Below are positions 1,775 to 26,577 of a stretch of DNA of 64,000 nucleotides, one piece after another (within the stretch, counting starts at the first letter, position 1; every line of letters begins with the position of its first letter). A program made the translations under genes and the position numbers. Source of the stretch: Methanocella sp. (lineage in GTDB: Archaea; Thermoproteota; Bathyarchaeia; Bathyarchaeales; Bathycorpusculaceae); contig JBLNCY010000057.1 of the NCBI GenBank assembly GCA_050261115.1, forward strand, positions 10,999 to 74,998. Direction: 5' to 3'. The notes under the pieces are model-generated. The model made no database searches, was not told where the DNA came from, and saw only the letters and a list, made by a program, of their open reading frames with translations.

Positions 1775-1904
1775 GTCGCCGCCAAAACTCCATGATACAC
1801 ATGGGTGCCTTTTGTTTATAAAATTTATGCAAAAAGCTGATATGGTTATTGAAAATTTTTAAGTAACCTCTGGGGCTTTTAGTTAAAAGAGAGAGGGCTA
1901 CCCC

Positions 1905-2954
1905 ATACAGAATAAAGAACAACAAACAAGCTCACGCTCATCCGTAATCAGCGACTACGTTGGGTGGGCGGCAATCCGAATCGGCGTCATAGTGATATCC
2001 TTTATCGTTTTAGAGGTATCCTACAAACTAGGCTTGTTTGGGGTCTTTGGAGATGAAGCCCTGCAGTTTAGTATCTACTCTGCGGTTCAAAAAATCCTCT
2101 TTTCCTTAGTTGTATGGTTCTTTTTAGCGACCTCACGAAAAATGATAATTCCCATCACAATACTCTCCGTGTCCCCTGCCTTGGGAAAAATTGTTCGTGA
2201 TCGATCATCCGTACAGAAAACAAACCTATCCCTAACCCGCTACTTAACTTATCTAGTCTACATCATAGGAGGCATCGCGCTTGTTTTGATCTGGGCTTAT
2301 GCCGCTATAGGCACCTGGGTTGCAGGCTTTCTGGGCAACAGCCTAGTAATCGGTTTAACCTTTATTCTGGGTCTTTTCTCTTCAAGCGTGCTTGGAAACG
2401 TCTTGGGCTATGCGATTCTGGGCGGCACAAATGAATTCAAAGTAGGTGACCGCGTCCAAATCGGTAGCAGCTATGGCGATGTTGTTGAGGTTGGCATTTT
2501 CTTTACCAGAATAAAAACGATCAAAGACGAGGTCATTAGCATCCCCAATTTGACGGTTATGAGTAAAGAGATACAGAATTTCAGCGCCGAAAAAGAAGTC
2601 CTCCTATACACCCAGGTAAACCTGGGCTATGATGTTAACAAGGAACAAGCCAAGCAGCTACTCATTGAAAGCGCACGAAGAACAAGAGGCATTTCAAAGG
2701 CAACTAAGCCGCCCTTTGTGCTGCTCAAAGAACTGGGCAGCTACAGCATAACTTATGAAATCAACGCTTACACCAACGAACCCAACCGTATGGTTGAAAT
2801 AAAAAGCGAACTCATCGACAACATCTTAACCGACTTCAAAAAAGCAGGCATCGATCTCCTCTCACCCACCTATCTTGTGCTCCGCAACCAAGAAAACACA
2901 GTCATGCCAGTAGCCCACTACATTGAGCGAATAAAACAAAAGCCCCAACCCTAA
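1905..2954 (+). CDS. MscS-family mechanosensitive channel
   Basis: FKVGDRVQIG...G.V.EVGIFFTRIKT...ISIPN core of MscS. Frame is open upstream of GTG 1992 through a TM helix; start proposed at ATA 1905. Confidence 0.88.
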   Translation: MQNKEQQTSSRSSVISDYVGWAAIRIGVIVISFIVLEVSYKLGLFGVFGDEALQFSIYSAVQKILFSLVVWFFLATSRKMIIPITILSVSPALGKIVRDRSSVQKTNLSLTRYLTYLVYIIGGIALVLIWAYAAIGTWVAGFLGNSLVIGLTFILGLFSSSVLGNVLGYAILGGTNEFKVGDRVQIGSSYGDVVEVGIFFTRIKTIKDEVISIPNLTVMSKEIQNFSAEKEVLLYTQVNLGYDVNKEQAKQLLIESARRTRGISKATKPPFVLLKELGSYSITYEINAYTNEPNRMVEIKSELIDNILTDFKKAGIDLLSPTYLVLRNQENTVMPVAHYIERIKQKPQP

Positions 2955-3190
2955 GATGGCGGCTGCTTAATCCACACTTTAGCGGTCTCCTGCACCCTAA
3001 TTCGGCCCTCAGTCTGCATCAACCGCACCTGCGTTTCGATGAATCGCTTGTCGCTGGTATGGAACTCTTTACGGATGGCGTTTTCGAGTTTGGGGATGTT
3101 GATGTGCTCGACTGCGCCTACGATATTCCAGAAGTGGGCTTGGATTTTTAAGCGCTTCTTTTTGGCTTCGGGCTCAACAGTTTTAGTCAT
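2951..3190 (-). CDS. Hypothetical small basic protein (possibly winged-helix-like)
   Basis: 79 aa ORF with ATG directly behind a small upstream ORF; no recognised family. Confidence 0.55.
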   Translation of the reverse strand: MTKTVEPEAKKKRLKIQAHFWNIVGAVEHINIPKLENAIRKEFHTSDKRFIETQVRLMQTEGRIRVQETAKVWIKQPPS

Positions 3191-3197
3191 AAGAGGT

Positions 3198-3317
3198 TTA
3201 CCTTGCGCAGTAGGGGCTTTCGTTTTTGACTTTGTGCGCTTGAACGCAGGCGGCGCAGTCGCTGTGATAGGGGCATTGTCGTTTTGGGCAGGGACAATTG
3301 GGTGCCTTACTTGACAT
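3198..3317 (-). CDS. 39-aa Cys/His-rich protein (DUF6485-like)
   Basis: Hand translation MSSKAPNCPCPKRQCPYHSDCAACVQAHKVKNESPYCAR; AAGGT before ATG; fills the gap between two co-oriented genes. Confidence 0.68.
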   Translation of the reverse strand: MSSKAPNCPCPKRQCPYHSDCAACVQAHKVKNESPYCAR

Positions 3318-3352
3318 AACCTTGAGTTCTCTATAACGAATATAATGATTGC

Positions 3353-3682
3353 TTAGTGGTTCTTTTTTCTTTCTTGCCCAAACCGATAAATGACATAGAT
3401 GCCCAAAGCATAGATGCCGACAGAGAAAATGCCGATAGAAAAGATACCGATCGAGAATATCCCAATCGAGAAAATGCCCGCGGCAAAAATGCCCACCGCA
3501 AAGGTTCCAGCCGCGAATACTCCTACGCTAAATTGCCCCGCCGCAAGATAACCCCCCGCAAAGTTATCGGCACTAAGGAGGGGTAAGCCGCCGATGGTCA
3601 TGTAACCTGCTAAGTACAGAATTAAGGCGATTAACAGCAGCGTGATGGGTATGGCTGCAGAAGCTATAGAAGTCATTCTCAA
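3353..3682 (-). CDS. Small membrane protein with tandem 5-residue (S/A)-x-G-x-F repeats
   Basis: N-terminal TM helix, then about 10 repeats (AAGQF SVGVF AAGTF AVGIF AAGIF SIGIF...), basic C-terminus. Confidence 0.72.
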   Translation of the reverse strand: MRMTSIASAAIPITLLLIALILYLAGYMTIGGLPLLSADNFAGGYLAAGQFSVGVFAAGTFAVGIFAAGIFSIGIFSIGIFSIGIFSVGIYALGIYVIYRFGQERKKNH

Positions 3683-3766
3683 AATGGGCGCCTGCTATGC
3701 ATTTAATGCAGTTATCGCTTTTCAATGTTTGTGACTAAAAAATGAAGCCACAAAAAAGAGGATTGG

Positions 3767-5740
3767 TTAGAGCCCAAATAGGGTGAGCAGCCTGAATGCT
3801 AAGCCGCCGACGAGGAGGGCTATGCCGATGTTGGCTGCCGTTATTGCTGCGGTGGCTTTCCATCCGAACTCTTTACCCAGCAGTGCCATGGTGGATACGC
3901 ATGGTATGTAGAGCATTGCCACGAGCGCCATCACGACCAGCTGCACAGGGGTAAAGCCCACGAGTAAATCGGCGGTTCCCAGTATCGCGGCTGCACCGAC
4001 CAAGACGAACTCTTTTCGGATTGTTCCCAAGAGGAGCAGCACTCCCGCCATGACTGGCAGTCCAAGCCACCAAACCGTCAGCGGCTCCATCACGTTGCTT
4101 ATGGGTTTAAGCACGTCATATGCGAACGCCAGCTGAATCAGCGCGCTGCCAACGATGTAGATTGGGAACACGATGTAGATGAGTGATTTAGTGCGTGCCC
4201 ATGTCTGCTTTAGCACTACTTTGAGTGAGGGCCGCTTGAAGCTGCTCATCTCCATGATTAGACCTGTGGATTTGCCAGGTACCACTTTCATCGCTACCCG
4301 TCCAGCTATGAAGATGATTATTATGTCCACGGCGTAGAGGAGTAGCGCCCATTCGATTCCTACGAAGAGGCCTACCATGCCAAAAAGCACGATTGTACGG
4401 GCTGAACAAGGCGCGAAAGTGATGGCAAATGCAGCAAGGAGGCGTTCGCGGCGGGTTTCCATGATTTTACAGCTGTGAATGGCAGGTACGCTGCAGCCAT
4501 ATCCTAGTATGATTGGGATGAGGGCTTTACCGTGGAGTCCCATCTTGTGCATAGCGCTATCCATCATAAAGGCTACGCGTGTCAGCAGACCTGAGTCTTC
4601 GATAGCGGCCAGTAGTAGGTAGAATGGGATGACGAACGGTATGATGAGTGTTAAGCCTGCGCTGATGCCGCCCCATATGCCATTGAAGATGATGTTTTGG
4701 ATTGGCTCGGTGTTGGTGAGTACTGGGTCGACTGAATAGATGCTGTTGAGTGCCTCTGTGATTAATTCGGAGAGTCCATTGCCGACGAAGAATGTCCAGA
4801 GCAGTAGGCCCAAGATGACTCCTGCAGATGTTAGGTAGCCAAGTACGTGGTGTGTAGTTAGCCATTCAAGTTTGTCTTGGAAGGTGTTCCAGATTTCACT
4901 TTGCTGCGTTGTTGATGCGGTGATGGAGCTGGCGAGTGCATAGCGTTCAGAGGCTATGATTGAGAAGCAGGGTTCTTGACAGCTTTTCTGTAGCTCTGCA
5001 CCGATTGCTTTTGCGTTGACAATTAATGGTTGGGATTTTGCAGCAACCATTTTACTGATTTCTGTATCGCCTTCCAGCAGCTTTATTGCTAACCAGCGAG
5101 CGGGGTATTGTAGCTCTAGGTTTTCTCTTTCGATTATATGCTGGAGTTGCTCTATTTTGTCTTCAAGTTCCTTACGATATTTGAGATGTTTAGGTTTTGG
5201 TTTGTGTGTAGCGACTTTTACTGCTTCTTTGACTGCTTCATACACACCTTCACCATGGATTGCGGTTGCAAGCACTACTGGAACGCCAAGTTTCTCTTGG
5301 AGTTTTTCTTTGTCGATTATGATGCCTTTACTTTTAGCTACGTCCCACTGATTCAGAACTAAAACCAGCGGAGCATTCATCTCTAACAGTTGAAGCGTAA
5401 AGAACAAGTTACGCTCCAAAACGGAGGCGTCAACAACATTTATGACGACATCAGGCTTTTCAAGTGCAATATAATCTCGTGAAACCAACTCCTCCATAGA
5501 GAAAGTGGAAAACGAGTATATGCCCGGCAGGTCAATAACGGTGATGTCGTATCCTTCAAAGCTAAGGCTGCCCTCGGCGCGTTCTACGGTTTTGCCCGGC
5601 CAGTTGCCTATGATCTGGTTTGAGCCCGTGAGGAGGTTAAAGATTACGCTTTTACCTACGTTTGCGTTTCCGGCTAGGGCGAATGTTAGCTGCTTTCTGT
5701 TTTGGTCAGGGGTTTTTTGGTTTTTTTGTCTTGAGAACAT
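3767..5740 (-). CDS. feoB: Ferrous iron transporter B
   Basis: G1 [24 protein letters not shown]; gate motifs with CSAR; AGGTGA SD. Confidence 0.97.
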
Positions 5741-5757
5741 GCCACTTCACCTACCTT

Positions 5758-6501
5758 TTAGGTTGCTGCTGGGTCCACGAAGACTTTAGTTGCGATACCG
5801 TGGCCGATGGCTAGTTTGGAGCCACGGACAGAGATTTCGATGGGACCCCCGAAGGGTGCCGCTTTGAGGAGGGTTACTTTTGTTCCGGGAGTTAAGCCCA
5901 TGTCTAGGAGGCGCTGGAGGACTGTGTGGCCTCCGCGGATGAACTGGATTTTGCCTGATTGTCCAGCTCGGAGTTCGTTTAGGGCCAGAAGGTTTTCTTT
6001 TCGTTTTCCGACTTCTTCTTGGCCTTTGTTGTGGAGGCTTATGCATTCTTCGCAGGTTGTGAAGGGGAGATCGCAGGCGGGGATTGTGTTGCCGTCGTCG
6101 CTGCAGGTGTCTGGATGTTTGAGTAGACGGCAGAGGGATTCTTCGGCTTCGTCGGAGAGGGTGTGTTCCATTTGGCAGGCTTGGGTGTGGACTTTGTCTT
6201 TGCCTATGTGTAGGATGTCGGTGAGGAAGGTTTCAAGTAAGCGGTGTTTGCGGAGAGTTTTTTGGGCTTCGGCGAGGCCTTTTTTGGTTAGTTTGCTGCC
6301 TTTGTAGGGTTCGTATTTTATATAGTCGTCTTCTGAGAGTTTTTTGAGCATTTCTGTGACGGATGCGGGGGCTATGTCTAGTTTTTTGCTGATTTCGGTG
6401 GTGCTGACTAGGTCTTTGTTTCGGCTGAGGGTGTAGATGGTTTTGAGGTAGTCTTGGGTTGATTTTTGTTCCGTGGTTTTTCTCCTCCTTTTTAGGTGCA
6501 C
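5758..6501 (-). CDS. DtxR/IdeR-family metal-dependent repressor fused to a C-terminal FeoA domain
   Basis: [32 protein letters not shown]; Feo[11 protein letters not shown]...APFGGPIEI. Probable true start is ACG at 6474. Confidence 0.93.
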
Positions 6502-6506
6502 CTAAA
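6491..6506. promoter_or_regulatory. DtxR/IdeR operator box 1
   Basis: Perfect palindrome TTTAGGTGCACCTAAA of the TTAGG-N-CCTAA DtxR type, over the predicted transcription start of the dtxR-feoB operon. Confidence 0.85.
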
Positions 6507-6528
6507 GGTTGTTGATGGGATATAAAGT

Positions 6529-6544
6529 TTTAGGTATGCCTAAA
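6529..6544. promoter_or_regulatory. DtxR/IdeR operator box 2
   Basis: Near-palindrome TTTAGGTATGCCTAAA just upstream of the minus-strand TATA box (TTTATAT, 6526-6520). Confidence 0.8.
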
Positions 6545-6736
6545 TATTTCCGGTCCATAAACATCCCAACCAACAAACACCCATTATCTATAAAGCAAAG
6601 ACAACCTGACAAATAGCCGCTGCCTCCACCTAAAACAAATGTGCAACCCACAATTAACCAACCCAACAGCCACCCAGCCCCCACTCATGAAAACCAGCAA
6701 ATACCCAAATACCTCCTGTACGGTGTGCGGTTGCTG

Positions 6737-6776
6737 AGTTATATATAAGGGAGGGGGGTCCCTGTGAGAGCAACAG
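6737..6776 (+). repeat. Dispersed intergenic element, copy A (short form)
   Basis: AGTTATATATAAGGGAGGGGGGTCCCTGTGAGAGCAACAG matches the core shared with five other copies. Confidence 0.85.
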
Positions 6777-6849
6777 GCTCCCCCGACTGCTTGCAAAACT
6801 AAAATGAACCAAATCGATAGACCTTCATGTTCAGCCCCCTCTCCACTGT

Positions 6850-6881
6850 CATCGAATGTTGTTTTGTCGATGCTTTAAATA
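6850..6881 (+). promoter_or_regulatory. Inverted repeat abutting the TATA box of the PolB2 cassette
   Basis: CATCGA-N11-TCGATG (6850-6872) followed by TTTAAATA (6874-6881). Confidence 0.5.
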
Positions 6882-6929
6882 ACAAAAATCAACGTAACCG
6901 TTGCCTCAACCACAAAAGAGAGGAAAACC

Positions 6930-7667
6930 GTGCAGAAACTCATTGTTAAACCATCAACCCCTCAGCTGACATCCCAACCGACGTTTTCACTAAACATGCC
7001 CCAAGCAGATGAACTCTTTCCCGGATTTCTACCCGGCGACTTCGCAGTCATACACGGCTCACCCGCCATAAACACCCTAACTTCACTGCTCTGTGTACGC
7101 GCTCAGCTACCTATGCAACTTGGCGGCTTAGCAAGTAATGTAGTCTTCATCGACGGCGGAATCACCTTTAGACTCTACCGCATCGCCAAATTAGCCCAGC
7201 TTCATGGACTCAACGCAGAAGAGGTACTGCAAAGAATCTTTATCTCTCGGGCATTCACCGCCTACCAGTTAACCTCGCTGGTAATGGAGAAACTAGAAGA
7301 AACCGTAAAAACCTGCCACGCTAAAGTCGCCATAATCTCAGACGTCGCTGGCTTCTTCTTAGACACCAATATAGCCGCAGAGGAAGCACAGAAAATCTAC
7401 AGCCAACTCATCTGCTACCTTGCAGACTTTGCTCGCAAACACCAAATCGTCGTAGTAGCCACCTATCTGCCCTACGAAAACAGCAAACGCAACATGACCC
7501 TCCAGCAGATAACCACCCAAAACGCGGGAATCGTCCTGTGCTTCACCAAAACCCCGAATGGCAAACAGCTATCCCTAGAAAAACACCCGACCTATACTCT
7601 GGGAACTACAAAATTACCTACAAGAACCATAACTTTAACTGACTTTTTAGGTGACAAATCTGGGTAA
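6930..7667 (+). CDS. Inactive RadA/RecA-like protein of the PolB2 cassette
   Basis: RecA-fold motifs VVFIDGG, I.ISRAFTAYQL and IISD retained; Walker A degenerate (HGSPAINTL, no GKT). Confidence 0.82.
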   Translation: MQKLIVKPSTPQLTSQPTFSLNMPQADELFPGFLPGDFAVIHGSPAINTLTSLLCVRAQLPMQLGGLASNVVFIDGGITFRLYRIAKLAQLHGLNAEEVLQRIFISRAFTAYQLTSLVMEKLEETVKTCHAKVAIISDVAGFFLDTNIAAEEAQKIYSQLICYLADFARKHQIVVVATYLPYENSKRNMTLQQITTQNAGIVLCFTKTPNGKQLSLEKHPTYTLGTTKLPTRTITLTDFLGDKSG

Positions 7668-7935
7668 AACAGTCGAATCCTACCGTATGGCAGTCGAAGA
7701 TGAAATTCGCCGCTGGAACGGTTTTGCTAAGGCTCTACGCAAAGAGGACCGGGAAGCCTTCGACGCATTGATGGATGCATGCCGCAGCTATGCGTCTGCC
7801 GCGAGCAACGCAACCAAACCCATACTCTTTGAGCCAATGGTTATGTCGATACTGCTTTCCCAGCAGATACGCATCCAACGATTAGCAAAGGAAGTCGAAG
7901 ACCTTAAAGCCAAACAGCCAGCCTCCACCCAGTAG
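7651..7935 (+). CDS. Small helical PolB2-associated protein (arCOG07300-like)
   Basis: GKTVESYR...W.GF..AL.KEDREAFD.L...R.YA pattern of the small protein usually encoded next to polB2; probable start CTG 7660. Confidence 0.75.
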   Translation: MTNLGKTVESYRMAVEDEIRRWNGFAKALRKEDREAFDALMDACRSYASAASNATKPILFEPMVMSILLSQQIRIQRLAKEVEDLKAKQPASTQ

Positions 7936-10225
7936 TACACGTGGCTGGATTCTGGACGCTTACCCCTCCGAATACGGTAAGGTCGCAGTGTGGGTTATAT
8001 CTGACTCAGGAAAACGCATAAAGTTCACTGACCGGTTTAACCCCTGCATCTATGTATCTGCAGCCAAACAAGACGACCTAGACCTACTACTGACCAAACT
8101 CTACAATAACCAAAAGATTGCTTCACTGCGGTTTACCGAAAAGTATGCTCAGCCAACGGACAGCCAAAAGTCAAGGGTGCTAGAGTTAACTGTTAAGGAT
8201 TGCCGGCATATTTCCTCCTTGGAGCTGGAGCTGCTCCGTTTGGGTGACTACCTTAGATACGAAGTCTATAACTGTGATGTGCAGAGTGATAGATCTTACT
8301 TTTACAGTCGTGACCTCTTCCCATTGGCGTACTTGGAGGTTAGGGTTAGCAAAGATGGCTTGGAATATACTTTGCTGGATGATGTAAGAAGCACCAGCTA
8401 TGCAATTCCAAAGTTGCGTGTGATGCACCTAGATGTGGATGTTGCCAAGAAAGATTTTATCCCCCGCTTTGAGGACCCCATCGATAGAATCCGTTTTCAA
8501 ATCGACGGTCAGGAAGTTGCGATAGACTATGGGGATGAAGCCACCAAACTTCTCCAACTTGCCTATGCAGTAAAAGAGTTAGACCCCGACGTAATCGTAA
8601 CCTCCGTAGGCGACTCATACCTCTTCCCATACCTAATACAGCGCGCCAACGCCAACGAAGTCCTCGACCAATTCATACTCAGCCGAGACCACAAACCCTT
8701 CAACCACAAAACCCCCACAGCGGCGGGTCATACATACTTCTCTTATGGCCACACATTTTACCGCGCCAGCCCGGTACGGTTGTATGGGCGAATACATATC
8801 GACAAAAGTAACACGTTCATTATGAAAGAGGCAGGGTTTGACGGCTTATTTGAAATTGCCCGCACTTGTCGGGTTCCACTTCATACGGCGGCTCGCTTCT
8901 CGATCGGCTCGAGTATGTCTTCTATTCAGTTCTATCAAGCTCTAAAAGATGATCGACTGCTGCCCCGTAACAAGAAAACTCCTGAGGTTTTCAAATCCGC
9001 ACTGGACCTCTTAGTCGGCGACCGAGGCGGTTTCATCTTTGAACCCAGAGTGGGCGTTCATGACGCAGTAGGTGAAGTAGACTTCTCCTCCATGTACCCT
9101 TCACTTATGAAGAAATATAACATTTCAGCAGAAACCATTCTCTGTAACTGCTGCCCCGATTCAGACATACACATCCCAGACTTAAACTATCACATATGCA
9201 GAAAGCATCAGGGCATGGTGCCTAAAACAGTAGAGTTAGCGTTAACTAAACGTTTAACCTACAAACGCCTAAGAGACCAAGCCACCGATGAACGGCAAAA
9301 ACAAATCTATGATCGGCGCCAGACGGCTCTAAAATGGATACTGGTTACCTGTTTTGGCTACTTGGGGTTTAGTAACTCCAAGTTTGGAACCGTTGACGGC
9401 CATATTGGTGTATGTGCGTTTGCTCGGGAGATCTTTCTAAAATCGACGCATCTTGCAGAAGAGCAGGGCTTTGAAGTGGTGCATGGCATTGTAGATTCGC
9501 TGTGGCTTAAAAAAGACGGCGCAACACATGAGGACTACCAGAAACTATGCCAGTTAATCTCTGATGAGACGGGTATACCAATTAATTTTGAGGGGCAATA
9601 TAAGTGGATAATGTTTCTGCCCTCGCGGCTCCACCCCAAGATTGGCGTGTTGAACCGTTACCTAGGCGTTATGGATAGCGGTAAAATTAAGGTTCGCGGT
9701 TTAGAAGTACGGAAACGGGATTCACCCCGCTTTGTGTACAACGCCCAAACTGACATGATAAATGTTCTAGCCAATGCTAACAACGCCAAGGAGCTTTATG
9801 GGCAGATTCCTGAGGCAATTAAGGTTCTTCGAGAGTACCGCCAGCGCCTGCTGAATGGCAAGGTGCCGCTCTCAGAATTAGTGGTTTCAAAGCACATGTC
9901 AAAAGAGCCTAAACGTTACCGCCAACAGGTAAGCCAAGTCATAGTTGCAAAGCAGCTAGCCCCCCATGGTTTCGAAGTGCAGGCGGGAACCAACACCGCG
10001 TTCCTCTACACCAGCCACAGGCATAAGCGTTACGAGCGCAGGGTTAAGGCGGCGCAGTTAATCGAGAAAAACACTAACCCAGATACAAGAAATTATTTGA
10101 TGTTGCTCTATGCGTCGGCTGCAAACCTGTTGAGTTTTGCTGGATATACAATAGAAAAAGTGTATGATTCAGTTAGAGGCCAACGGCAAGAATGCATCCT
10201 TCAAAAGTGGGAGAAAAGCGGGTAG
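7904..10225 (+). CDS. polB2: Family B DNA polymerase, PolB2 type
   Basis: Motif A DFSSMYPS, motif B KWILVTCFGYLG, motif C HGIVDS instead of YGDTDS, degenerate exonuclease motifs. Conserved GWILDAYP lies upstream of the first canonical start (7988); start position uncertain. Confidence 0.9.
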   Translation, partial: LKPNSQPPPSSTRGWILDAYPSEYGKVAVWVISDSGKRIKFTDRFNPCIYVSAAKQDDLDLLLTKLYNNQKIASLRFTEKYAQPTDSQKSRVLELTVKDCRHISSLELELLRLGDYLRYEVYNCDVQSDRSYFYSRDLFPLAYLEVRVSKDGLEYTLLDDVRSTSYAIPKLRVMHLDVDVAKKDFIPRFEDPIDRIRFQIDGQEVAIDYGDEATKLLQLAYAVKELDPDVIVTSVGDSYLFPYLIQRANANEVLDQFILSRDHKPFNHKTPTAAGHTYFSYGHTFYRASPVRLYGRIHIDKSNTFIMKEAGFDGLFEIARTCRVPLHTAARFSIGSSMSSIQFYQALKDDRLLPRNKKTPEVFKSALDLLVGDRGGFIFEPRVGVHDAVGEVDFSSMYPSLMKKYNISAETILCNCCPDSDIHIPDLNYHICRKHQGMVPKTVELALTKRLTYKRLRDQATDERQKQIYDRRQTALKWILVTCFGYLGFSNSKFGTVDGHIGVCAFAREIFLKSTHLAEEQGFEVVHGIVDSLWLKKDGATHEDYQKLCQLISDETGIPINFEGQYKWIMFLPSRLHPKIGVLNRYLGVMDSGKIKVRGLEVRKRDSPRFVYNAQTDMINVLANANNAKELYGQIPEAIKVLREYRQRLLNGKVPLSELVVSKHMSKEPKRYRQQVSQVIVAKQLAPHGFEVQAGTNTAFLYTSHRHKRYERRVKAAQLIEKNTNPDTRNYLMLLYASAANLLSFAGYTIEKVYDSVRGQRQECILQKWEKSG

Positions 10226-11449: not shown

Positions 11450-11530
11450 AGCGCACCCTCCAAAGAATAATCGTGTCTGAAGCTATAAAACCTTTAACTA
11501 GCAAGTTCGCTTATTTTAGATTGATCGGGT

Positions 11531-13078: not shown

Positions 13079-13090
13079 GACACGCAAACG

Positions 13091-14798: not shown

Positions 14799-15743
14799 TT
14801 AGGTTGGTGGAGGCGGGGGCGGAGGCAGACCTGTGCCAGATCTACGTTTGCGCATTATCACCACTAACACAACCACTACTATCACAACAACAGCGATCGA
14901 TACTGCTAGTAAGGTTAGATCACTAAAGGGTGATTGTGTCGTTGGGGCTATGGTTGGCGTTGAGGTGGGAGCGGGGGTTGCTGTAAGTGCAACTGTTGTT
15001 GGTTCAGGCGTTGCCGTGGCGTCTGTGCTAGGAGTTGGGGTCTCGGTTGGTGCGGGGGTAGGGGTTGGAAATGGGTCAAGCGTGTCGCTCATTGTTACGG
15101 TGTCAAGATAGACGTTACCTGTCGTGTATCCTAGATTTAATAAAGAGCCTAAGTTGATTGCTTTTGCAGCGTAAGGAAGCGCAAGATTAGAACCGGAGTA
15201 TACCAATTTGCTGTCAATCCAAAGCTGACAGGCTCCGTTAGTTGCTCCTGTTTGGATTGTTTCGGTGATACGGTACCATACACCCTGCGTTATCCCTTCG
15301 GGAATGAATACATCCATGGCTGAACCATAGCCCACTAATCGCCAGCCTAAATCGCCTGTGCCATTGCAAGATAGAAATAGACGGGTTATTGGGCTACTGG
15401 TTTGGTCATCGACAATTTCAGTAATTTTAATCATTGCTCCCGCCGTCGCGTTAACGGTATCTATTTGAAAAAAGAAGTCCAGAGTTACGGCACTTGAAGG
15501 TGCAAAGCCATATTGAATGTATGCGGAGTTGTCGATGGGTAGCTGCGCTATGTGGCTTCCGTTTACGCTTGGAGGTGTTGAAACGATAGTGGGGTCACCA
15601 CTGGTGAACCAGATTGAGAAGTCGGTTTCAAAGTCCTCCTGCAGTACAACACTGCCCTGTGCGTTAGATAATGTGCCTAATATGGCCGCTATGGCGAGCA
15701 ACATAACTGCGATAAATGTGTTTAATTTTAGTTTATTGTTGAC
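14799..15743 (-). CDS. Membrane-anchored surface protein: beta-sandwich (LamG/lyase-like) domain, Pro/Thr linker, TM anchor, poly-Pro tail
   Basis: Signal-like N-terminus, EDFE, W.R..., LWID.KLV, PTPTP linker, TM + RKRR, C-terminal PPPPPPPT; start possibly GTC 15743 (ORF track 15704). Confidence 0.75.
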   Translation of the reverse strand, partial: VNNKLKLNTFIAVMLLAIAAILGTLSNAQGSVVLQEDFETDFSIWFTSGDPTIVSTPPSVNGSHIAQLPIDNSAYIQYGFAPSSAVTLDFFFQIDTVNATAGAMIKITEIVDDQTSSPITRLFLSCNGTGDLGWRLVGYGSAMDVFIPEGITQGVWYRITETIQTGATNGACQLWIDSKLVYSGSNLALPYAAKAINLGSLLNLGYTTGNVYLDTVTMSDTLDPFPTPTPAPTETPTPSTDATATPEPTTVALTATPAPTSTPTIAPTTQSPFSDLTLLAVSIAVVVIVVVVLVVIMRKRRSGTGLPPPPPPPT

Positions 15744-15946
15744 ATAATTTTCACTTTAACTACCGGTAACACGCTATCAGGTATGTACTATAAATGTTTT
15801 TTATCCCCCATTGAACCATTGGTTACACCATCTTACCGATATACCGCCTGATTTACCCGTGGTTATTGCGGTAATTATAATAGACGCCGAATCAAACGAT
15901 GTAACGCAAAAAAGAGCAATGGCACAGTTAAGGGCACGGCATCCAC

Positions 15947-17390: not shown

Positions 17391-17508
17391 ATATTACACT
17401 ATTCCAAACAAAGCCACATAGTTGGGTGTTCCTTTTGGGGAACGGGCTGTTCTTTGGGGAGAGCTATAAGCGCGTACCTGTCATCTTGTACACTCAGGTG
17501 ACAAACGA

Positions 17509-18438: not shown

Positions 18439-18451
18439 GGAGTGAAGCGGG

Positions 18452-19624: not shown

Positions 19625-19694
19625 ATGCTTGGTTGACACGTTTTCTGTTTAATTTTAAATATAACTTCTGATAGAAAATGACTGGGGAACTGTC

Positions 19695-20906
19695 ATTAGC
19701 AGCCTTGGGCCAGCACGTACTCGGCTTCTTCTTTTAGCTTTAGCTTTATCTTCCCTATCTACCTGTCTAGTAACCGTTGCCTTTCAGGTTCTCATGGTCG
19801 ATGTAGCGGCAAGCTTTCAAGTTCAGGTGGGCACAGCAAGCATGGTCGCCTCAGTTGGCTCCATTTCAGGCATAACCTTTGGCTTGCTTATGGCCATCGT
19901 GAGCATACGCTACAACCACAAAAAACTACTTCTAGCCGGAATAGCATGCAACATCCTAGCCGCTTTAGGCTACTATTTGGCACCTACATTTCCATGGCTG
20001 CTAGCAGCTAACATCGCTGTCGGCGCTGGGCTCTCAATAGTTATCTCCATGGCATACTCGATAATCGGAAACGTTATCCCCCTTAAGAGTAGGGGAAGAG
20101 CAATCGGCATAATGGTTGCATCTACAACAATTGCTTTCGTCACAGGCGCCCTATTCGTAGGCGTGTTATCTTCATATTTTAATTGGCGCATGGTTACCAT
20201 CATTTTATCGCTACCCGTAGCCCTTACCAGTCTAGTCCTGTCAGCAGTTTTTGTACCAAAAAATACCAACACAAACAACATAACCAAGGAGGAATCGTTC
20301 ATGGTTGGCTGCAAACAAGCTTTCTCCCGCGTCTCCGGGATAGCAGCGTTGACAGTGACAACATTTATGTTCTGTGAAGGCGCCATCGGATACTACTCAG
20401 TTTCTTTCCTAAGAGAACATTTTTCGGTATCGATAGCTTTGGGCTCAACCTACTTCTTGGTGGCTAACATAGTGGCTGCGGTAGGCGGGGCGGTCTCGGG
20501 TTTGATGGTGAACAAGGTTGGACGCAAAAAACTGGGAACAATCGCGCTAATTGTAGCTTGCATATTAACATTGGGATTCACGTTGATGCCTACCGTTGAG
20601 CTCTCAATCGCGGTCAGTATTCTGCGTTATTGGTTTGGCGCGATGGCGGCAACCGCAGGTGGCAGCTTAATAATCGAGCAGCTACCCCGATTCCGAAGCA
20701 CCATGAGCTCGCTAAATGCTGCTTTCATGAATGTCGGCATGCTTTTAGCTTCGATTATTGGCGGCTTAACGCTTAACAACTTTGGGTATCAAGCGTTAGG
20801 TTTGGTTTTAGGCGGTTTAGGCGTGCTGGGTGCGGTTGTATGGGTTGCCTTAGTTAAGGAACCCTGCCCAACAACTCTACCCTCTGACGTTCTCTCTGAA
20901 TCATAA
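19695..20906 (+). CDS. MFS transporter
   Basis: MFS TM pattern, RGRAIG, NKVGRKK; first TM helix lies upstream of ATG 19794 with no canonical start; ATT 19695 proposed. Confidence 0.85.
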   Translation: MSSLGPARTRLLLLALALSSLSTCLVTVAFQVLMVDVAASFQVQVGTASMVASVGSISGITFGLLMAIVSIRYNHKKLLLAGIACNILAALGYYLAPTFPWLLAANIAVGAGLSIVISMAYSIIGNVIPLKSRGRAIGIMVASTTIAFVTGALFVGVLSSYFNWRMVTIILSLPVALTSLVLSAVFVPKNTNTNNITKEESFMVGCKQAFSRVSGIAALTVTTFMFCEGAIGYYSVSFLREHFSVSIALGSTYFLVANIVAAVGGAVSGLMVNKVGRKKLGTIALIVACILTLGFTLMPTVELSIAVSILRYWFGAMAATAGGSLIIEQLPRFRSTMSSLNAAFMNVGMLLASIIGGLTLNNFGYQALGLVLGGLGVLGAVVWVALVKEPCPTTLPSDVLSES

Positions 20907-21008
20907 CGATAAAAACTACAAAAAGTCCAAGTGGGGAAATGCGTTGTTTATGTGTGAAGTATTTTTAAGCCACCCACTCCATACCCCAAAGCGAAGAGGG
21001 CGAATGGT

Positions 21009-21392
21009 TTGGAACGCAGAGACTTTGACCGCGCAAACGTCATAAAAGAGGAAATTCGGCAGCAGGAGCACCGTTTCCTAGCTGTATATGTGGAGGCAAG
21101 AAACAGCATCATGATTATGCTTAGTGAAAGGGAAGATCGGCTTGGCACTATGGCTATTGCGGTTCCTAAACCCCGAGACATGGTGGGCGCCGTTACCTCT
21201 TCGGTGCTTGTTGGCGATAAACATGTTATCTCTGCGCGCATGTTCGCCGAGTACGTTGCTTCAAAGAAAGGCAAAATCGCCATGGTTTCAGTTTACCTTG
21301 ACAAAGTCAGCGAGATACAGGCGCAGGAATTCTTTATGCACCTAATTGACAAAGTAATGAAAACAGACAGTAAAGAACCCACCACAGCATAA
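21009..21392 (+). CDS. Conserved hypothetical protein (possibly PAC4-like proteasome chaperone fold)
   Basis: RLGTMAIAVP...SS.L.G...AR.FA...A...MVSV pattern; GAGGG SD before TTG. Fold assignment tentative. Confidence 0.55.
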   Translation: MERRDFDRANVIKEEIRQQEHRFLAVYVEARNSIMIMLSEREDRLGTMAIAVPKPRDMVGAVTSSVLVGDKHVISARMFAEYVASKKGKIAMVSVYLDKVSEIQAQEFFMHLIDKVMKTDSKEPTTA

Positions 21393-21406
21393 CCGACTGG
21401 ACCATT

Positions 21407-21901
21407 ATGCACATCCAGAAATTATCTGATGCCGACTTAGAAGCCATTTACTCAATAATTAACGAAGCAGCAGAAGCCTACAAGGGCAAAATCCCCCCTG
21501 ACTGCTACCATGAACCTTACATGTCCCAAATGGAACTCCAAAATGAAATATCTGCAGGCGTACAATTTTACGGCATTACTCACGAAGGGAAATTAGCTGC
21601 TGTTATGGGAATCCAACCCGTCGGCGACGTCACCCTAATCCGCCATGCCTACACCCTGCCTAAGTATCAGTCCCATGGGCTAGGAAGCCAACTCCTGCGT
21701 TACCTGCTTAGTTTAGCAAAAACAAGGTGCATTCTTGTCGGCACATGGCAAGTCGCATCCTGGGCAATTCGCTTCTACCAAAAACACGGGTTTATCCTGC
21801 TGTCTAGAGAAGAGACAAATAGGCTTCTTGGCAAATACTGGAACATCCCAAAGAGGCAAATCGAAACCTCCACGGTACTTGAACAGTGGCACAATCCATG
21901 A
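21407..21901 (+). CDS. GNAT N-acetyltransferase
   Basis: IRHAYTLPKYQSHGLGSQLL and AIRFYQKHGF motifs. Confidence 0.9.
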   Translation: MHIQKLSDADLEAIYSIINEAAEAYKGKIPPDCYHEPYMSQMELQNEISAGVQFYGITHEGKLAAVMGIQPVGDVTLIRHAYTLPKYQSHGLGSQLLRYLLSLAKTRCILVGTWQVASWAIRFYQKHGFILLSREETNRLLGKYWNIPKRQIETSTVLEQWHNP

Positions 21902-22953
21902 AAACCCTAATCCTCAAAGTAGACCCAAACAACCCCGACAAGACGCAAATCCAAATCGCAGCAGACATCATCCAAAGAGGCGGTTTAGTGGCTTTCCCAA
22001 CCGAGACCGTGTATGGGTTAGGCGCAAATGCGCTGGATGGCGATGCAGTGCGGCGGCTCTTTGAAGCAAAAAAGCGCCCACTCGATAACCCACCCATAGT
22101 TCATGTCACTGAGGCCTCGGAAGTTTATTCACTTGTAGCAGAAGTCCCGCCGAAAGCTGAATTGCTCATGAAACAATTCTGGCCAGGTCCCCTTACGCTG
22201 GTTTTCAAGCGCTCAAATAATGTGCCCAAAGAGTCAACGGCGGGATTAGATACCATTGCCATCCGAATCCCAAAACACCCCATAGCACAAGCGCTCATCC
22301 GACAAAGCAAACGCCCAATCGCGGCGCCCAGCGCAAACCTCTCAGGCAGACCCAGCCCCACCACAGCCCAACACGTCTACAGCGACCTAAACGGACGCAT
22401 AGACGCCATCATCGACGGTGGCGCCGCCAACATAGGCGTCGAATCCACCGTAGTCGATTTAAGCTGTGACCCACCAGTGCTGCTTCGGCCTGGCGGAACA
22501 CCCTTTGAGGCACTTAAAGCTGTGTTGGGCGATTTGCGGCTGCATCCTTTTGTTGAATCCGAAATGGAAGTGCCGCTAGACCAAGCGCGCTCGCCAGGTA
22601 TGAAGCATAAACATTACGCGCCAAACGCCCAAGTTATCCTAGTAGAAGGCAACGTGGAGGCAGTTATGTCCAAGATTAGGGAGCTTACGGTTGATTATAA
22701 AGCAAAAAAAGCCCAGGTCGGGGTCCTAGCTACAGACGAAACCATAGCAGCCTACACTGCTGATGTGGTTAAATCAATGGGCAGCCGCCAAAACCTGTCT
22801 ACCGTCGCCGCGAGCCTTTTTGGACTGCTACGGGAAGTGGATGCTTTAGGCGTTGACGTAATCATCGCCGAAGGTGTCCCCTTGGAGGGGTTAGGCTTAG
22901 CTGTAATGAACCGCCTACGCAAAGCCTCCAACTACCACATCATAAAAGCATAG
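21898..22953 (+). CDS. sua5: Threonylcarbamoyl-AMP synthase Sua5
   Basis: FPTETVYGLGA, AKKRPLDNP, WPGPLT, AAPSAN.SGRPSPT, PGMKHKHYAP; ATGA overlap with the GNAT gene. Confidence 0.96.
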   Translation: MKTLILKVDPNNPDKTQIQIAADIIQRGGLVAFPTETVYGLGANALDGDAVRRLFEAKKRPLDNPPIVHVTEASEVYSLVAEVPPKAELLMKQFWPGPLTLVFKRSNNVPKESTAGLDTIAIRIPKHPIAQALIRQSKRPIAAPSANLSGRPSPTTAQHVYSDLNGRIDAIIDGGAANIGVESTVVDLSCDPPVLLRPGGTPFEALKAVLGDLRLHPFVESEMEVPLDQARSPGMKHKHYAPNAQVILVEGNVEAVMSKIRELTVDYKAKKAQVGVLATDETIAAYTADVVKSMGSRQNLSTVAASLFGLLREVDALGVDVIIAEGVPLEGLGLAVMNRLRKASNYHIIKA

Positions 22954-23853
22954 CTATTTGCGTAGGGAAGCCAGCAAGTCCTCGAGGTTGATTTTAGCTA
23001 CTCCGACCACGCTGTCAGCGGCGCCGTAGTAAACAAATAAATCATCGCCGATGACGACGTTACCACAGCTAAACACTACGTTAGGTACCTTACCGAAGCG
23101 TTCATAGTCCCGTTTCGGCGCCAAAATTGCTTTCCTGGACCGATAAAGCACCCGCTCTGGGTGGTCTTCGTCAAGCAATATAATCCCCAGACTGTACAGT
23201 CGTTCTGTGCTTACGCCATGGTAAACAAGCAGCCAGTAATTGTCGATTTTAATGGGGGTGCCGCCTGCGCCGAGTTTCCAGTTATCCCAGCCCCGTGCAC
23301 GTGGCAGCATCATGGATTTCAAATCACACCAATGCTCTAGATCCTCTGAGTAGGCGATGCAGATGTCGGGTTCGATGCGGTGTATCATCGCGTAGCGCCC
23401 GTCGAATTTCTGGGGAAAAATCACTGCGTCTTTATTTCGTATTCCTGGGAACGGGAGCTTGCGGGGCGTCCAGTTCCATCTTTTTGCCAGGAAATCGGCT
23501 TTTTTTATCGTTGTTAGTGCAATTTGGAAGACCATCAAGTGGCTGTATTCTCTTAGCGCCGTGTAGGTCATGACTAAGCGATCGTCGATTTCTGTTATGC
23601 GGGGGTCTTCTACGCCATCTTTTTCGCAGGCCGCTTTGGGCTCAAACACGGGCTCGGGTAACCGTTCGTCTATGTGGACGCCGTCTTTGGAAGTGGCATA
23701 GCCGATTCTTGAGATGTCATCGTTTCCTATAGCTCGATAGAGTAGGTGTACTTTGTTGTCTAGGTAGACGGCGGCGGGGTTGAATACTTCTCTGGATTCC
23801 CATGGGTGAGCTTCTATGGGTCGAAGGATTGGGTTACCGACGTAGCGCTGCAT
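22954..23853 (-). CDS. GH130-like glycosidase/phosphorylase (DUF377)
   Basis: FNPAA, EDPRIT, NKDAV, HRI, KLGAG, YHGV, VPNVVFSCG. Confidence 0.9.
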   Translation of the reverse strand: MQRYVGNPILRPIEAHPWESREVFNPAAVYLDNKVHLLYRAIGNDDISRIGYATSKDGVHIDERLPEPVFEPKAACEKDGVEDPRITEIDDRLVMTYTALREYSHLMVFQIALTTIKKADFLAKRWNWTPRKLPFPGIRNKDAVIFPQKFDGRYAMIHRIEPDICIAYSEDLEHWCDLKSMMLPRARGWDNWKLGAGGTPIKIDNYWLLVYHGVSTERLYSLGIILLDEDHPERVLYRSRKAILAPKRDYERFGKVPNVVFSCGNVVIGDDLFVYYGAADSVVGVAKINLEDLLASLRK

Positions 23854-23862
23854 GGTTAATCC

Positions 23863-24276
23863 CTATAACGCAGTCGCTAAAGGTGTCTTGATTCCCAAGA
23901 TCTCGTCGAAGAAGCCCCGTAGCGAGAATAATCCGATTAGTTTTCCTGTGGCGTCGGTCACTGGGAGGTGCCGTATGTCATGTGAAAGCATCAAGCGTTT
24001 GGCTTCGTCAAAGGAGGCGTCGTGAGAAATCGTCACAACGTGCCTGCTCATGACTTCACTAAGCGGGCGATCTACGGGGTGCTTGTTAGCCATCAATCGA
24101 ATAGCGTCTCGCTCGGTAAATATGCCGATGCATTTCTGCTCGTCATCCACAACTACCACTGACCCCACATGGCGTTCGTATAGTAACGACAATGCTGCCT
24201 GTATAGAAACATCCTCTTTAGCGGTGACGATTTTTTTACACATCAAATCTTTGACTTTAAGCATGGGTTCACACAT
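23863..24276 (-). CDS. CBS-domain pair protein
   Basis: Two CBS repeats (VKDLM...GIFTERD; VM...IRHLPV...GLFS). Confidence 0.9.
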   Translation of the reverse strand: MCEPMLKVKDLMCKKIVTAKEDVSIQAALSLLYERHVGSVVVVDDEQKCIGIFTERDAIRLMANKHPVDRPLSEVMSRHVVTISHDASFDEAKRLMLSHDIRHLPVTDATGKLIGLFSLRGFFDEILGIKTPLATAL

Positions 24277-24328
24277 AATTAACCCTCACAAAAGCAGACT
24301 CTAACCAATATAACTCAGTGGCTACAGC

Positions 24329-25369
24329 TTAAATTCTCTTTTGGTTACGAATTTCCTCAAGCTTTAGCCGTGCCAGCAGATAAGAAATTGAGGATTCCGC
24401 TCCCTGATTTCTGTTAACCGCCTCCGCCCCTAATCCATCATAGCAGCCGCCAGTCTGCACGTTATACATGACAATTTTACGGCTGTTTTGACCCAAAAAC
24501 CACCCAAACACCCTATCGGCCAATGTGAGATACTGTGTTTTGTTGGTGGCATAGTAAGCGTCGACTGTGGCGTCCACCATCGCTGCCGCCTCTAGGGGCT
24601 GTTGATCATATAGGGGTCGATTCCCGCCTCGTTTGAACCAGCCGTCGTTCCCGATTGGCACAAAATAACCGTCGATCATCTGGGTCTTAGTCAAGAAATC
24701 CATAGCGTCCTCTGCTACTTCTAGATATTCGGGTTTTTTAACTATCAAATAAGCCAAAAACAACGCTTGGGCTAGGCGAGCGTTGTCATATGTCAGGTGA
24801 GGTTCAAACCAGTGCCAGTCATCTTTGGTTTGGTCGCGGAAGTTCTGGACCATTAGATCTGCGAGTTTTTCAGCGGACTCTATGATTTCCTTATTTGGGG
24901 CAGCTTGATTGTACTCATATAAGCCTGATATAGTTGAGGAGTAGAAGCGCATGGAAATCGACTTGAAAACCCAAGGAAGTGCGCGGTCAAAGATGTCTTT
25001 TGCGACTAAACGCATGTCTTGGGGGAGTCTGCTGTTTATGGCGCATCCGCATGCCCAAAGAGTCCGTCCGGCTGAGTCTTCGGAGCCGTCTACGTCAAGG
25101 AAAGTGCGTTCGTAGCTTAGGTAGTTGTGGAAGTTGCCGTCTGGCTTCTGCATATGATTTAGAAACGACAAGTAGACTTTTGCCAGCCGCTCCATACTGG
25201 GGTCTGAGTAAAGTTTGTGGTATTTTACGGCTGCAATCAGGGCGCGGGCGTTGTCGTCGGTGGTGTAGCCTTCGCCTCTTTTGGGGATGCAGAATTTCGC
25301 ATGCTGAAAGACCCCCGTATCGTCGGTGAAGTCTCTGAGGTAATCGATTTTTAAGTATGGTAAGCGGAT
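24329..25369 (-). CDS. (alpha/alpha)6-barrel glycosidase-like protein, usually the C-terminal partner of this GT4
   Basis: TDDTGVFQHA...GYTTDDNARAL lies upstream of ATG 25195 in the same open frame; LTYDNARL, YDQQPLE, GCYDGL, NQGAES. Start proposed at ATC 25369. Confidence 0.8.
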   Translation of the reverse strand: MRLPYLKIDYLRDFTDDTGVFQHAKFCIPKRGEGYTTDDNARALIAAVKYHKLYSDPSMERLAKVYLSFLNHMQKPDGNFHNYLSYERTFLDVDGSEDSAGRTLWACGCAINSRLPQDMRLVAKDIFDRALPWVFKSISMRFYSSTISGLYEYNQAAPNKEIIESAEKLADLMVQNFRDQTKDDWHWFEPHLTYDNARLAQALFLAYLIVKKPEYLEVAEDAMDFLTKTQMIDGYFVPIGNDGWFKRGGNRPLYDQQPLEAAAMVDATVDAYYATNKTQYLTLADRVFGWFLGQNSRKIVMYNVQTGGCYDGLGAEAVNRNQGAESSISYLLARLKLEEIRNQKRI

Positions 25370-26577
25370 TGTACCTTCATCTCCGATTGCGCTGTTAATT
25401 GATCGAAAAGTGTTAGGTACTTTTTTGCAACTATAGGCCAGGTGAAGTTTCGACTGTAGAAATAGGCCTTTTGCTCTAGGGATCGGCGGAGTTTTTGGTC
25501 TTCGATGATTTCTGTAACTTTTTCAGCGATGGATTGTGGGTCGTTGAATTTGCAGAATACTCCACGGCCTTCTCCAAGCGCTTCTTTTGCATGCAGATAG
25601 GGTGTGGATACTACCGCTTTTCCTGCGGCTAGTGCGTAGGATAAGGTGCCGCTGCTCACCTGATTAGGTGAAAGGTAAGGCGTAATATACACGTCAGTTG
25701 CTAGCAGGTAATTGTATATTTCCTGTTTTGAGAGGAAACGGTTTAGGAACCTAACATGGTTACGTAACCCGAGGTCTTTAGCCATCTTTAAGAGCGAGTT
25801 TCGGTAAGCTTCGCCCTCATGCTTCTTTACCTGTGGATGTGTTACGCCGAGCACATAATAGATAAGGTTAGGCTCTTTTTTTATTATCTCCGGGAGCGCT
25901 TGGATGACGTTTTCGATGCCTTTGCCTTTGCTTAGCAACCCAAACGTTGAGAGCACCACCTTGTTTTGTAAGCCTAAAGTGGGTTTTGCCTTGTAACTGG
26001 GCATAAAGGGCAAGTCTGGGCAACCATGCGGAATTATTGTAACTTTTTTTGACGGAACCCCATATTGTTTAACCAGATCACGCGTCGTCTGATTCAAAAC
26101 AACGATTGCCGTGCTTTTTTCAACTACTTCATGAAACACCTCTTTTGCCCGATCCTCAAAATTCGGGAGCACGGTATGAAGTGTAGTGGCTACTGGCCTG
26201 TTTAGTTTATCAAGGAAACCGCAAATGTACTCTCCAGCTTCCCCTCCGAATATGCCGAATTCATGCTGGATATTAACCACATCTACGGAGGATTGATTAA
26301 GGAAATCTGCCATCAGCAGGTAATCTTCCAAGAAGTCGCGCCCGATTTTGTGTTCAAAGCCTTCAAATGTTGGTTTAAACAGGCGGCGACCATCGATGGA
26401 TATCACTCTCTGATCGCGTAACTGGTTTAATTGGTTTATCGCATTTACTAAGTCGGCAGTAAACGTGGCTATCCCGCATTTTCGGGGCGGGAAAGTGCTT
26501 ACATAAGCAACTTCCTTAACGCTAGCCAGCTTGGGGCTGCCTAGAACATACTTTGCCAATAACAAATCACGAACCAA
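25351..26577 (-). CDS. GT4 glycosyltransferase
   Basis: STFPPRKCGIATF, QHEFGIFGG, FGLLSKGKGIE, G.THP, SGTLSYA...GKAVVSTPY. Confidence 0.92.
   Translation of the reverse strand: MVRDLLLAKYVLGSPKLASVKEVAYVSTFPPRKCGIATFTADLVNAINQLNQLRDQRVISIDGRRLFKPTFEGFEHKIGRDFLEDYLLMADFLNQSSVDVVNIQHEFGIFGGEAGEYICGFLDKLNRPVATTLHTVLPNFEDRAKEVFHEVVEKSTAIVVLNQTTRDLVKQYGVPSKKVTIIPHGCPDLPFMPSYKAKPTLGLQNKVVLSTFGLLSKGKGIENVIQALPEIIKKEPNLIYYVLGVTHPQVKKHEGEAYRNSLLKMAKDLGLRNHVRFLNRFLSKQEIYNYLLATDVYITPYLSPNQVSSGTLSYALAAGKAVVSTPYLHAKEALGEGRGVFCKFNDPQSIAEKVTEIIEDQKLRRSLEQKAYFYSRNFTWPIVAKKYLTLFDQLTAQSEMKVQSAYHT

Follow-up and report, generated by a model that had tools for sequence, protein, structure and literature searches.

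How does translation begin on a gene whose family-typical N-terminus lies upstream of the first ATG, GTG, or TTG codon in its reading frame? The question is raised by a 64,000-nucleotide (nt) stretch of archaeal DNA, hereafter the window, which comes from a metagenome-assembled genome (MAG; the window is G000:C57:10999-74998, where G000 denotes this genome). An original prediction, made from the letters of the window alone, placed near-cognate start codons behind Shine-Dalgarno (SD)-like motifs in six of its genes, namely, mscS (ATA1905), dtxR (ACG6474), the gene adjoining PolB2 (the PolB2 partner, Pfam DUF8156; CTG7660), a surface-protein gene (GTC15743), a major facilitator superfamily (MFS) gene (ATT19695), and the GH127-like gene that follows a GT4 gene (the GT4 partner; ATC25369). 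All six codons and their SD-like motifs were found where they had been placed. In this work, comparison with orthologues led us to regard SD-directed initiation at near-cognate codons (ACG, AUA, AUC, AUU, and CUG) as likely in this genome and its family. Of the six proposed starts, those of mscS (ATA), dtxR (ACG), DUF8156 (CTG), and the GT4 partner (ATC) agree with the start columns of orthologues, that of the surface protein is refuted, and that of the MFS protein is unsupported.

The MAG (2.15 Mb in 66 contigs; 94.9% completeness) is a Bathy-6-like member of the Bathyarchaeia. Close relatives were taken from public genomes labelled Bathyarchaeia or Bathyarchaeota, some of them as Ca. Bathycorpusculum, and for each gene the proposed codon was compared in the alignment with the ATG, GTG, or TTG of the orthologues. 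In this test, a canonical start of orthologues mapped onto the proposed codon for four genes; the surface protein, with one weak homologue only, could not be mapped, and the MFS start was unsupported.

Among nine orthologous mscS loci, the column of the window's ATA-CAG holds ATG-CAG in two (G014 and G007b) and TTG-CAG in three (G007a, G001, and G046), each with GGAG located 8-10 nt upstream; the remaining four have a nearby ATG at a shifted position. The first canonical codon of mscS in the window is GTG 1992, and there is none between the in-frame stop at 1884 and this codon. For the GT4 partner, a GGAGG-like SD is in place at all 24 Bathyarchaeia loci compared. The ATC column is ATG in five of these loci, about nine have ATG, TTG, or GTG two codons upstream (ATG-GCC-ATC), and about ten, including the window, have only ATC or ATT. 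The first canonical codon of this gene (ATG 25195) lies 58 codons downstream, inside the conserved domain; the Pfam GH127 catalytic domain corresponds to residues 93-271 of the stop-to-stop frame. The stop codon of the upstream GT4 gene (TAA 25353-25351) overlaps the start of the partner gene.

The ACG column of dtxR is occupied by ATG in ten orthologues and by GTG in one (G005); in three more, a TTG stands one codon further downstream. The window's dtxR has a stronger SD than any of its orthologues. For DUF8156, the CTG column holds GTG in eight loci, ATG in five, and TTG in one (14 loci), and the stop codon of the upstream gene is TAA 7665-7667. One relative (G024) has ACG in the DUF8156 start column; an in-frame TGA stands six codons upstream of it, and no canonical codon could serve in its place. 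As the original prediction had pointed out, dtxR and DUF8156 each have an in-frame GTG as an alternative start, at 6501 and 7651, respectively; the latter lies within the SD.

The same loci were located via neighbouring proteins in other public assemblies (Logan, JGI, and NCBI) derived from different samples, although some of the underlying runs may also underlie the MAG. The ATA1905 region is identical in six other assemblies, ACG6474 in six, the CTG7660 region in eight, and ATC25369 in three. Two of the assemblies with ACG6474 carry a single-nucleotide polymorphism (SNP) in the TATA box of dtxR and one carries an SNP in the operator, so at least some of them represent different strains. The expectation that gene callers would truncate such genes was borne out in the public collection, in which the called GT4 partner begins at ATG25195 and has 288 amino acids (aa), mscS has 320 or 270 aa (a lookup of the 270-aa form returned no record), DUF8156 begins at ATG 7687 and has 82 aa, and the MFS protein has 370 aa. 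The dtxR product is called as 247 aa from GTG6501.

Table 1. Start regions and related features in the window, and genes elsewhere in the MAG in which a Pfam domain or motif lies upstream of the first canonical codon (ORF, open reading frame; HTH, helix-turn-helix; N5 and N7, spacers of 5 and 7 nt).
Feature	Position	Strand	Details
mscS start region	1891..1907	+	GAGAGGG 1891-1897, 7-nt spacer, ATA 1905-1907; ORF to 2954
dtxR start region	6472..6489	-	AGGAGGAG 6489-6482, 7-nt spacer, ACG 6474-6472; ORF to 5758
dtxR promoter	6491..6544	-	palindromes TTTAGGCATACCTAAA 6544-6529 and TTTAGGTGCACCTAAA 6506-6491 flanking TATA box TTTATAT 6526-6520
PolB2-partner (Pfam DUF8156) start region	7649..7662	+	AGGTGA 7649-7654, 5-nt spacer, CTG 7660-7662; ORF to 7935
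Surface-protein start	15735..15745	-	ATG 15745-15743 behind GTGA-N5; one A lost from A-run 15737-15736 in the MAG
MFS 5' region	19650..19796	+	TATA box ~19650-19662; out-of-frame ATG 19678; ATT 19695; first in-frame ATG 19794
GT4-partner (GH127-like) start region	25367..25384	-	GGAGATGA 25384-25377, 7-nt spacer, ATC 25369-25367; ORF to 24329
SufS			Aminotran_5 from residue 27; first canonical codon is codon 198
Lrp regulator			HTH residues 7-48; first canonical codon at 57
NMNAT			HxGH motif upstream of first canonical codon; preceded by CCC-ATT-ACG-ATA
Other genes with Pfam start upstream of canonical codon			TrpE, PurF-like amidotransferase, methyltransferase, acyltransferase, PAS kinase, ferredoxin-domain protein

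Beyond the window, the most persistent cases were found in core genes. In DnaG, an ACG located about 10 nt after AGGAG is invariant in all 20 genus genomes compared and is also present in the five family genomes sampled from four genera (24 family genomes overall). The first canonical codon of this gene is 135 codons downstream. Residues 1-170 are 90-98% identical within the genus, and the DNA upstream of them is AT-rich with indels. In the other Bathyarchaeia families sampled, DnaG starts at a canonical ATG or TTG, which lies in the same column where the sequences can be aligned. Because the ACG is family-wide although a single transition would restore ATG, the weak codon itself may have been kept, as in bacterial infC. 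In the PurF-like gene, an in-frame TAA is followed only by AAC-ACG-GGC and then the catalytic Cys; G000 has ACG in the start column, G013 has ATG, and seven further genomes of the family have ATA, and in other families the protein has ATG and an 8-residue propeptide. In SufS, the start column is GTG in 13 species, ATA in five (including G000), and ATT in one, and the ATA overlaps the upstream stop as ATAA. Further genes of G000 with probable near-cognate starts include those for MetX (ATC), NMNAT, a P-type ATPase (ATA), an Lrp regulator (ATA), and others.

In all these alignments, the excess of variability at third codon positions begins directly after the start column; ahead of it, the profile shows gaps and no periodicity, or it keeps to the frame of the preceding gene. 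For upstream in-frame canonical codons the picture is mixed: none exists for mscS, the GT4 partner, DnaG, SufS, or the PurF-like gene, and one is present for dtxR and DUF8156. On the basis of these comparisons, near-cognate codons at orthologous start columns very probably act as weak start codons, and the habit appears to be old and common to the whole family rather than special to G000.

For a genome-wide view, 2,023 ORF-genes were chosen by codon log-odds in G000, the only genome to which the whole-genome counts refer. These ORF-genes cover 85% of the genome, and gene lengths and coding density are normal. Each in-frame stretch from the upstream stop to the first canonical codon was given a coding score (the extension score). 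Coding-like extensions were found in 54 non-edge genes at a score of at least 8, compared with 12 in a matched null; the corresponding numbers were 35 versus 5 at a score of at least 10 and 16 versus 0 at a score of at least 15. Many of these genes code for familiar proteins that would lose their N-terminus at the first canonical codon. In at least nine further genes, that codon lies downstream of the start of a Pfam domain (Table 1). In about 30-40 genes (1.5-2%), coding sequence demonstrably reaches further upstream than any canonical start. This approach misses short extensions and genes that happen to have an upstream in-frame canonical codon (such as dtxR and DUF8156), so we applied a rough upward correction for sensitivity, by which perhaps 3-6% of genes would have near-cognate starts. 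Both values fall short of the proportion of about a tenth that had been proposed.

The genome-wide search for near-cognates behind SDs gave a divided answer. Within the 5' extensions, ACG (nine observed, 2.7 expected) and CTG (seven observed, 2.7 expected) were the most enriched codons behind SDs, and the excess for the seven near-cognates pooled was small (see below). Where the SD lay a short way past an in-frame canonical codon (class B2), near-cognates behind it were at chance level. In a census of 6-mer SDs, 141 were followed by a canonical start and about 7-11 credibly by a near-cognate with a long coding frame. In a rough comparison, an SD of at least five bases was present in 7 of the 13 cases chosen without an SD criterion and at 17% of canonical starts. 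No credible case starting at AAG or AGG was found among the genome-wide candidates; these two are the near-cognates that work worst in eukaryotes.

The signals expected of ordinary archaeal initiation are in place. The 16S rRNA ends in ...GGATCACCTCCT (also written ...GGAUCACCUCCU), from which the expected SD is GGAGGTGA. Among the leftmost canonical starts of 2,015 ORF-genes, ~17% have a match of at least five bases to AGGAGGTGATC, and the aligned spacing peaks at 7-10 nt; at many other genes of G000 a TATA box ~25-35 nt upstream replaces the SD. The canonical starts named in the original prediction have GGTGA-type SDs 5-8 nt upstream, as claimed. The SDs of the near-cognate cases (AGGAGGAG, AGGTGA, GGAGATGA, GAGAGGG, and AGGAG or GAGG) stand at canonical spacing.

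Taken with these signals, a simple scheme may be proposed. An ordinary SD duplex with the 16S rRNA 3' end (GGAUCACCUCCU) would position the small subunit and fix the P site, so that the initiator Met-tRNA could pair with codons that are one base off AUG or GUG, its CAU anticodon accepting a single mismatch at reduced efficiency. Near-cognates would arise by point mutation of ATG, GTG, or TTG, be tolerated, and then, on some genes, be kept for a long time by selection. The codon spectrum matches the supply by mutation, since a transition turns ATG into ACG, ATA, or GTG. Under this scheme, translation would begin at these codons, with Met as the first residue and at low output; dosage tuning and tolerated drift would both be plausible as their purpose.

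A divergent aIF1 or aIF2 had been suggested as the cause of relaxed start selection, and for aIF1 this does not hold. The aIF1 (SUI1) gene is present in 30 of 31 genus genomes, and the G000 protein scores 82.8 bits against Pfam SUI1, is 90-96% identical to its relatives, and has only three private changes (T5I, S53T, and Y61F). We rejected a divergent aIF1 on these grounds, and an unusual initiator tRNA was likewise rejected, as no odd feature was seen: the molecule has a CAU anticodon on a stem with three G:C pairs, as well as the usual A1:U72 pair. In the tRNA set, ARAGORN reported two CAU tRNAs only (the initiator on C31 and elongator Met on C51); an AUA-reading tRNA-Ile2 was not found, and it probably lies on missing sequence or was overlooked by ARAGORN.

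Two of the six proposed starts have other explanations. At the start of the surface-protein gene, the sequence is ATGTCAACAAATAAA in five other assemblies of this species, compared with ATGTCAAC-AATAAA in the window; the five have one A more (AAA versus AA at 15736-15737). With the extra A, ATG15745 is in frame and the product begins M-S-T-N-K-L-K-L-N-T-F-I-A-V-M-L-L..., a normal signal peptide. The codon GTC15743 (GTGA-N7-GTC) is therefore no start and was rejected, and the MAG carries a 1-nt deletion. This genome thus holds at least one homopolymer indel, as an error or a strain variant, which is a warning for any frameshift finding in it. The MFS orthologues have an ATG or GTG upstream of the first transmembrane helix (TM1), and the window has none in frame there. 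An out-of-frame ATGACTG at 19678 resembles the ATGACTG start of the orthologous genes, and the SD (GGGGA-N6-ATT) is weak. Five other assemblies share this start region without change, but the ORF is split into 72 + 285 aa in two of them and 97 + 264 aa in one. With its poor SD and an ORF broken in three of the five, ATT19695 was set aside as a start, and the MFS gene is probably decaying.

A third case of this kind lies outside the window. TrpE (G000:C16:10445, minus strand) has 153 codons, including Anth_synt_I_N, without a canonical start. An ATG stands 11 nt past GGAG in the +1 frame, directly before A-rich runs (CAAAAACAAACCAAAAAACC), and an indel or frameshift is likelier here than a near-cognate start. 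The surface-protein, TrpE, and MFS cases indicate that indels or pseudogenes account for some of the genes counted genome-wide.

Several observations weigh against near-cognate initiation as a general explanation. Besides the deletion in the surface-protein gene and the nearby out-of-frame ATGs in TrpE and MFS, the pooled count of seven near-cognates behind SDs in the 5' extensions is nearly flat (34 observed, 30 expected). The near-cognate states of mscS, dtxR, and DUF8156 are private to the species and possibly represent recent damage; an insertion sequence (IS) element adjoins the 5' end of mscS in two strains, and the PolB2 gene next to DUF8156 is broken in several assemblies. In dtxR and DUF8156, the GTGs at 6501 and 7651, which lie only a few codons upstream, could replace the near-cognates. 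GTG 6501 lies inside the second dtxR palindrome and is out of frame in G008. Because this codon is located ~24 nt from the TATA box, dtxR may have a leaderless (5'-terminal) GUG start there. Finally, with G000 as the sole genome in the pipeline, it is published counts and general background that suggest the near-cognate rate to be unusual.

The alternative that several of these points favour is that the loss of starts is simply damage, such that the genes are young pseudogenes or yield truncated or altered proteins from GTG 6501, GTG 7651, GTG 1992, or ATG 25195, with the near-cognate codons unused. The MFS gene, which has no start and is split in three of five other assemblies, may be such a case, and the species-private states would fit. 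Nevertheless, we consider damage an unlikely account of the whole set. It does not explain why the DnaG ACG is kept in 24 genomes of four genera with an N-terminus that is 90-98% conserved, why the catalytic Cys of the PurF-like protein lies upstream of every canonical codon, the SufS pattern, or the ATC or ATT of the GT4 partner in about ten species. Truncation at the first canonical codon would delete the cores of Pfam domains. Furthermore, the SDs are kept, and that of dtxR is the strongest among its orthologues.

Recoding is considerably less probable. Under this explanation, a -1 frameshift would fuse GT4 to its partner (or the small gene to PolB2), or ribosomes would re-initiate after termination regardless of the codon. 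Some of the gene arrangements are compatible with it: relative to GT4, the partner is read in the -1 frame, which is open for 170 nt across the GT4 stop, a 1-nt insertion in one relative (L049) sets the two frames in register, the SufS ATA overlaps the upstream stop, and CTG 7660 is 5 nt ahead of one. However, five orthologues of the GT4 partner have ATG in the same column behind the same SD, and no conserved slippery heptamer (X XXY YYZ) was seen by eye in the GT4-partner alignments, for which no formal search was made. Coupling is also inapplicable to mscS, dtxR, and DnaG, which have their own promoters or non-coding upstream DNA.

RNA editing that restores AUG, by C-to-U change at ACG and A-to-I change at AUA, is more improbable still. 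ACG and ATA are indeed the commonest states, and editing of ACG to AUG is established in plant organelles. Nonetheless, editing leaves ATC, ATT, and CTG unexplained, and the prevalence of ACG and ATA is matched by their being simply transition products of ATG; we know of no mRNA editing system in archaea, a point for which no search was made. The least credible explanation is that sequencing or assembly errors in the MAG created the non-canonical starts: a missing A, confined to this MAG, does break the frame of the surface protein, and the out-of-frame, SD-led ATG of TrpE is followed by A-rich runs, but 3-8 other assemblies of separate samples, some with neighbouring SNPs, have the same ATA, ACG, CTG, and ATC codons, the same states recur in other species, and gene lengths and coding density are normal.

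For initiation at near-cognates behind SDs, several known systems offer comparisons. The infC gene of Escherichia coli starts at AUU. In Staphylococcus aureus, conserved non-canonical starts are found in infC (AUA), cvfC1 (AUU), ccpN (AUA), and citZ (AUA), and reporters gave ~10-30% of the AUG output (PMC13009471). The cases described here resemble the bacterial ones in having a near-cognate at the start, a strong SD at fixed spacing, conservation in relatives, and omission from annotation, and a lower output would be expected here too. They differ in that archaea have aIF1, aIF1A, and aIF2 of eukaryotic type and no IF3. Moreover, ACG is the commonest codon here and goes unmentioned in the S. 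aureus study (PMC13009471); and, compared with the four S. aureus genes, dozens are predicted per 2.1-Mb genome here.

Eukaryotes initiate at CUG, GUG, UUG, ACG, AUA, and AUU (PMC3105428). The codon set here is the same (ACG, AUA, AUC/AUU, and CUG, with no credible AAG or AGG), and eIF1/aIF1 and eIF2/aIF2 are homologous. However, eukaryotic sites depend on scanning and Kozak context and are mostly N-terminal extensions or upstream open reading frames beside an AUG start, whereas here an SD would place the ribosome and the near-cognate would be the sole start of a core gene. In the archaeon Haloferax volcanii, ~30% of the putative alternative initiation sites in ribosome profiling were near-cognate and were set aside to limit false positives (PMC7261190). 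Those sites likewise concern near-cognates in an archaeon, but they are footprint-based and alternative or extra, and the study did not present them as conserved main starts; the evidence here is comparative. Archaeal systems that discriminate against non-AUG codons have the same machinery as this genome (aIF1), and this lineage appears to be tolerant although its aIF1 is ordinary. Our literature search found no paper on non-AUG starts in Bathyarchaeia. SD-led near-cognate initiation is known in kind, and the archaeal form proposed here appears to be new.

A broader reading, for which we judge the chances to be evenly balanced, is that the whole Bathyarchaeia family uses ACG, AUA, AUC, AUU, and CUG (possibly also GUU/GUA, as in two PolB paralogues) as working SD-led starts in several per cent of genes, including those for replication and core metabolism, and that weak starts such as the DnaG ACG have been selected throughout the family as a fixed dosage setting. 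If so, start stringency in this family would be nearer to the eukaryotic near-cognate hierarchy than to the bacterial one, despite an ordinary aIF1. The cases fall into three layers, namely, species-private (mscS and dtxR), clade-level (SufS and the GT4 partner), and family-level (DnaG and PurF-like), which may provide a time series of the loss of start codons, tolerance, and fixation. Initiation in archaea combines factors of eukaryotic type with SD-led mRNAs like those of bacteria, and a lineage with ACG or AUA as the only start of essential genes would be a natural system in which to study how codon-anticodon pairing is judged by aIF1, aIF1A, and aIF2 once an SD has fixed the position.

There are also practical consequences. 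Standard gene finders allow only ATG, GTG, and TTG, so DnaG, PurF-like, SufS, mscS, GH127-like, and other proteins of this lineage, a very abundant sediment and soil group, lack their N-termini in public databases. The missing parts include catalytic residues, signal peptides, and DNA-binding and membrane helices, and their absence distorts structure prediction, searches for homologues, and the reconstruction of metabolism.

Further observations concern the surroundings of these genes. Both dtxR palindromes (16 nt, TTTAGGYRYRCCTAAA) and the TATA box between them are kept in 16 of 16 orthologous loci, and the palindromes are probably DtxR/MntR autoregulatory operators. In two JGI assemblies (3300023203 and 3300045909), the DNA that follows the mscS TATA box (window ~1866, plus strand) has given way to a Transposase_mut IS element. 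In L049 (CAWALK010000012.1, ~1490-1530), a Nanopore-derived MAG, the 1-nt insertion is located in the overlap of GT4 and its partner and brings an ATG inside the SD, together with the GT4 frame, into register with the partner gene; it may be either a GT4-partner fusion or a homopolymer error.

The PolB2 gene of the window (7883-7990, plus strand) has no canonical start ahead of its conserved N-terminus G-W-I-L-D-A-Y-P. Two codons before the Gly, relatives have GTT (ten), ATT (two), ATC (one), or GTA (one), compared with ACA in the window. Several other assemblies have a split PolB2. A second PolB paralogue (G000:C65:14683, plus strand) reads GGAGGT-N8-GTT-AGA-GGC-TGG, with an in-frame TAG two codons upstream. 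GTT or GTA at these PolB paralogues would be a GUG-type start with a third-base mismatch. PolB2 and DUF8156 form a cassette with a RadA/Rad51-like gene (window 6930-10225, plus strand). Paralogues of DUF8156 are numerous per genome in this genus, with up to ten in G045, and the cassette may be part of a mobile or repeated element.

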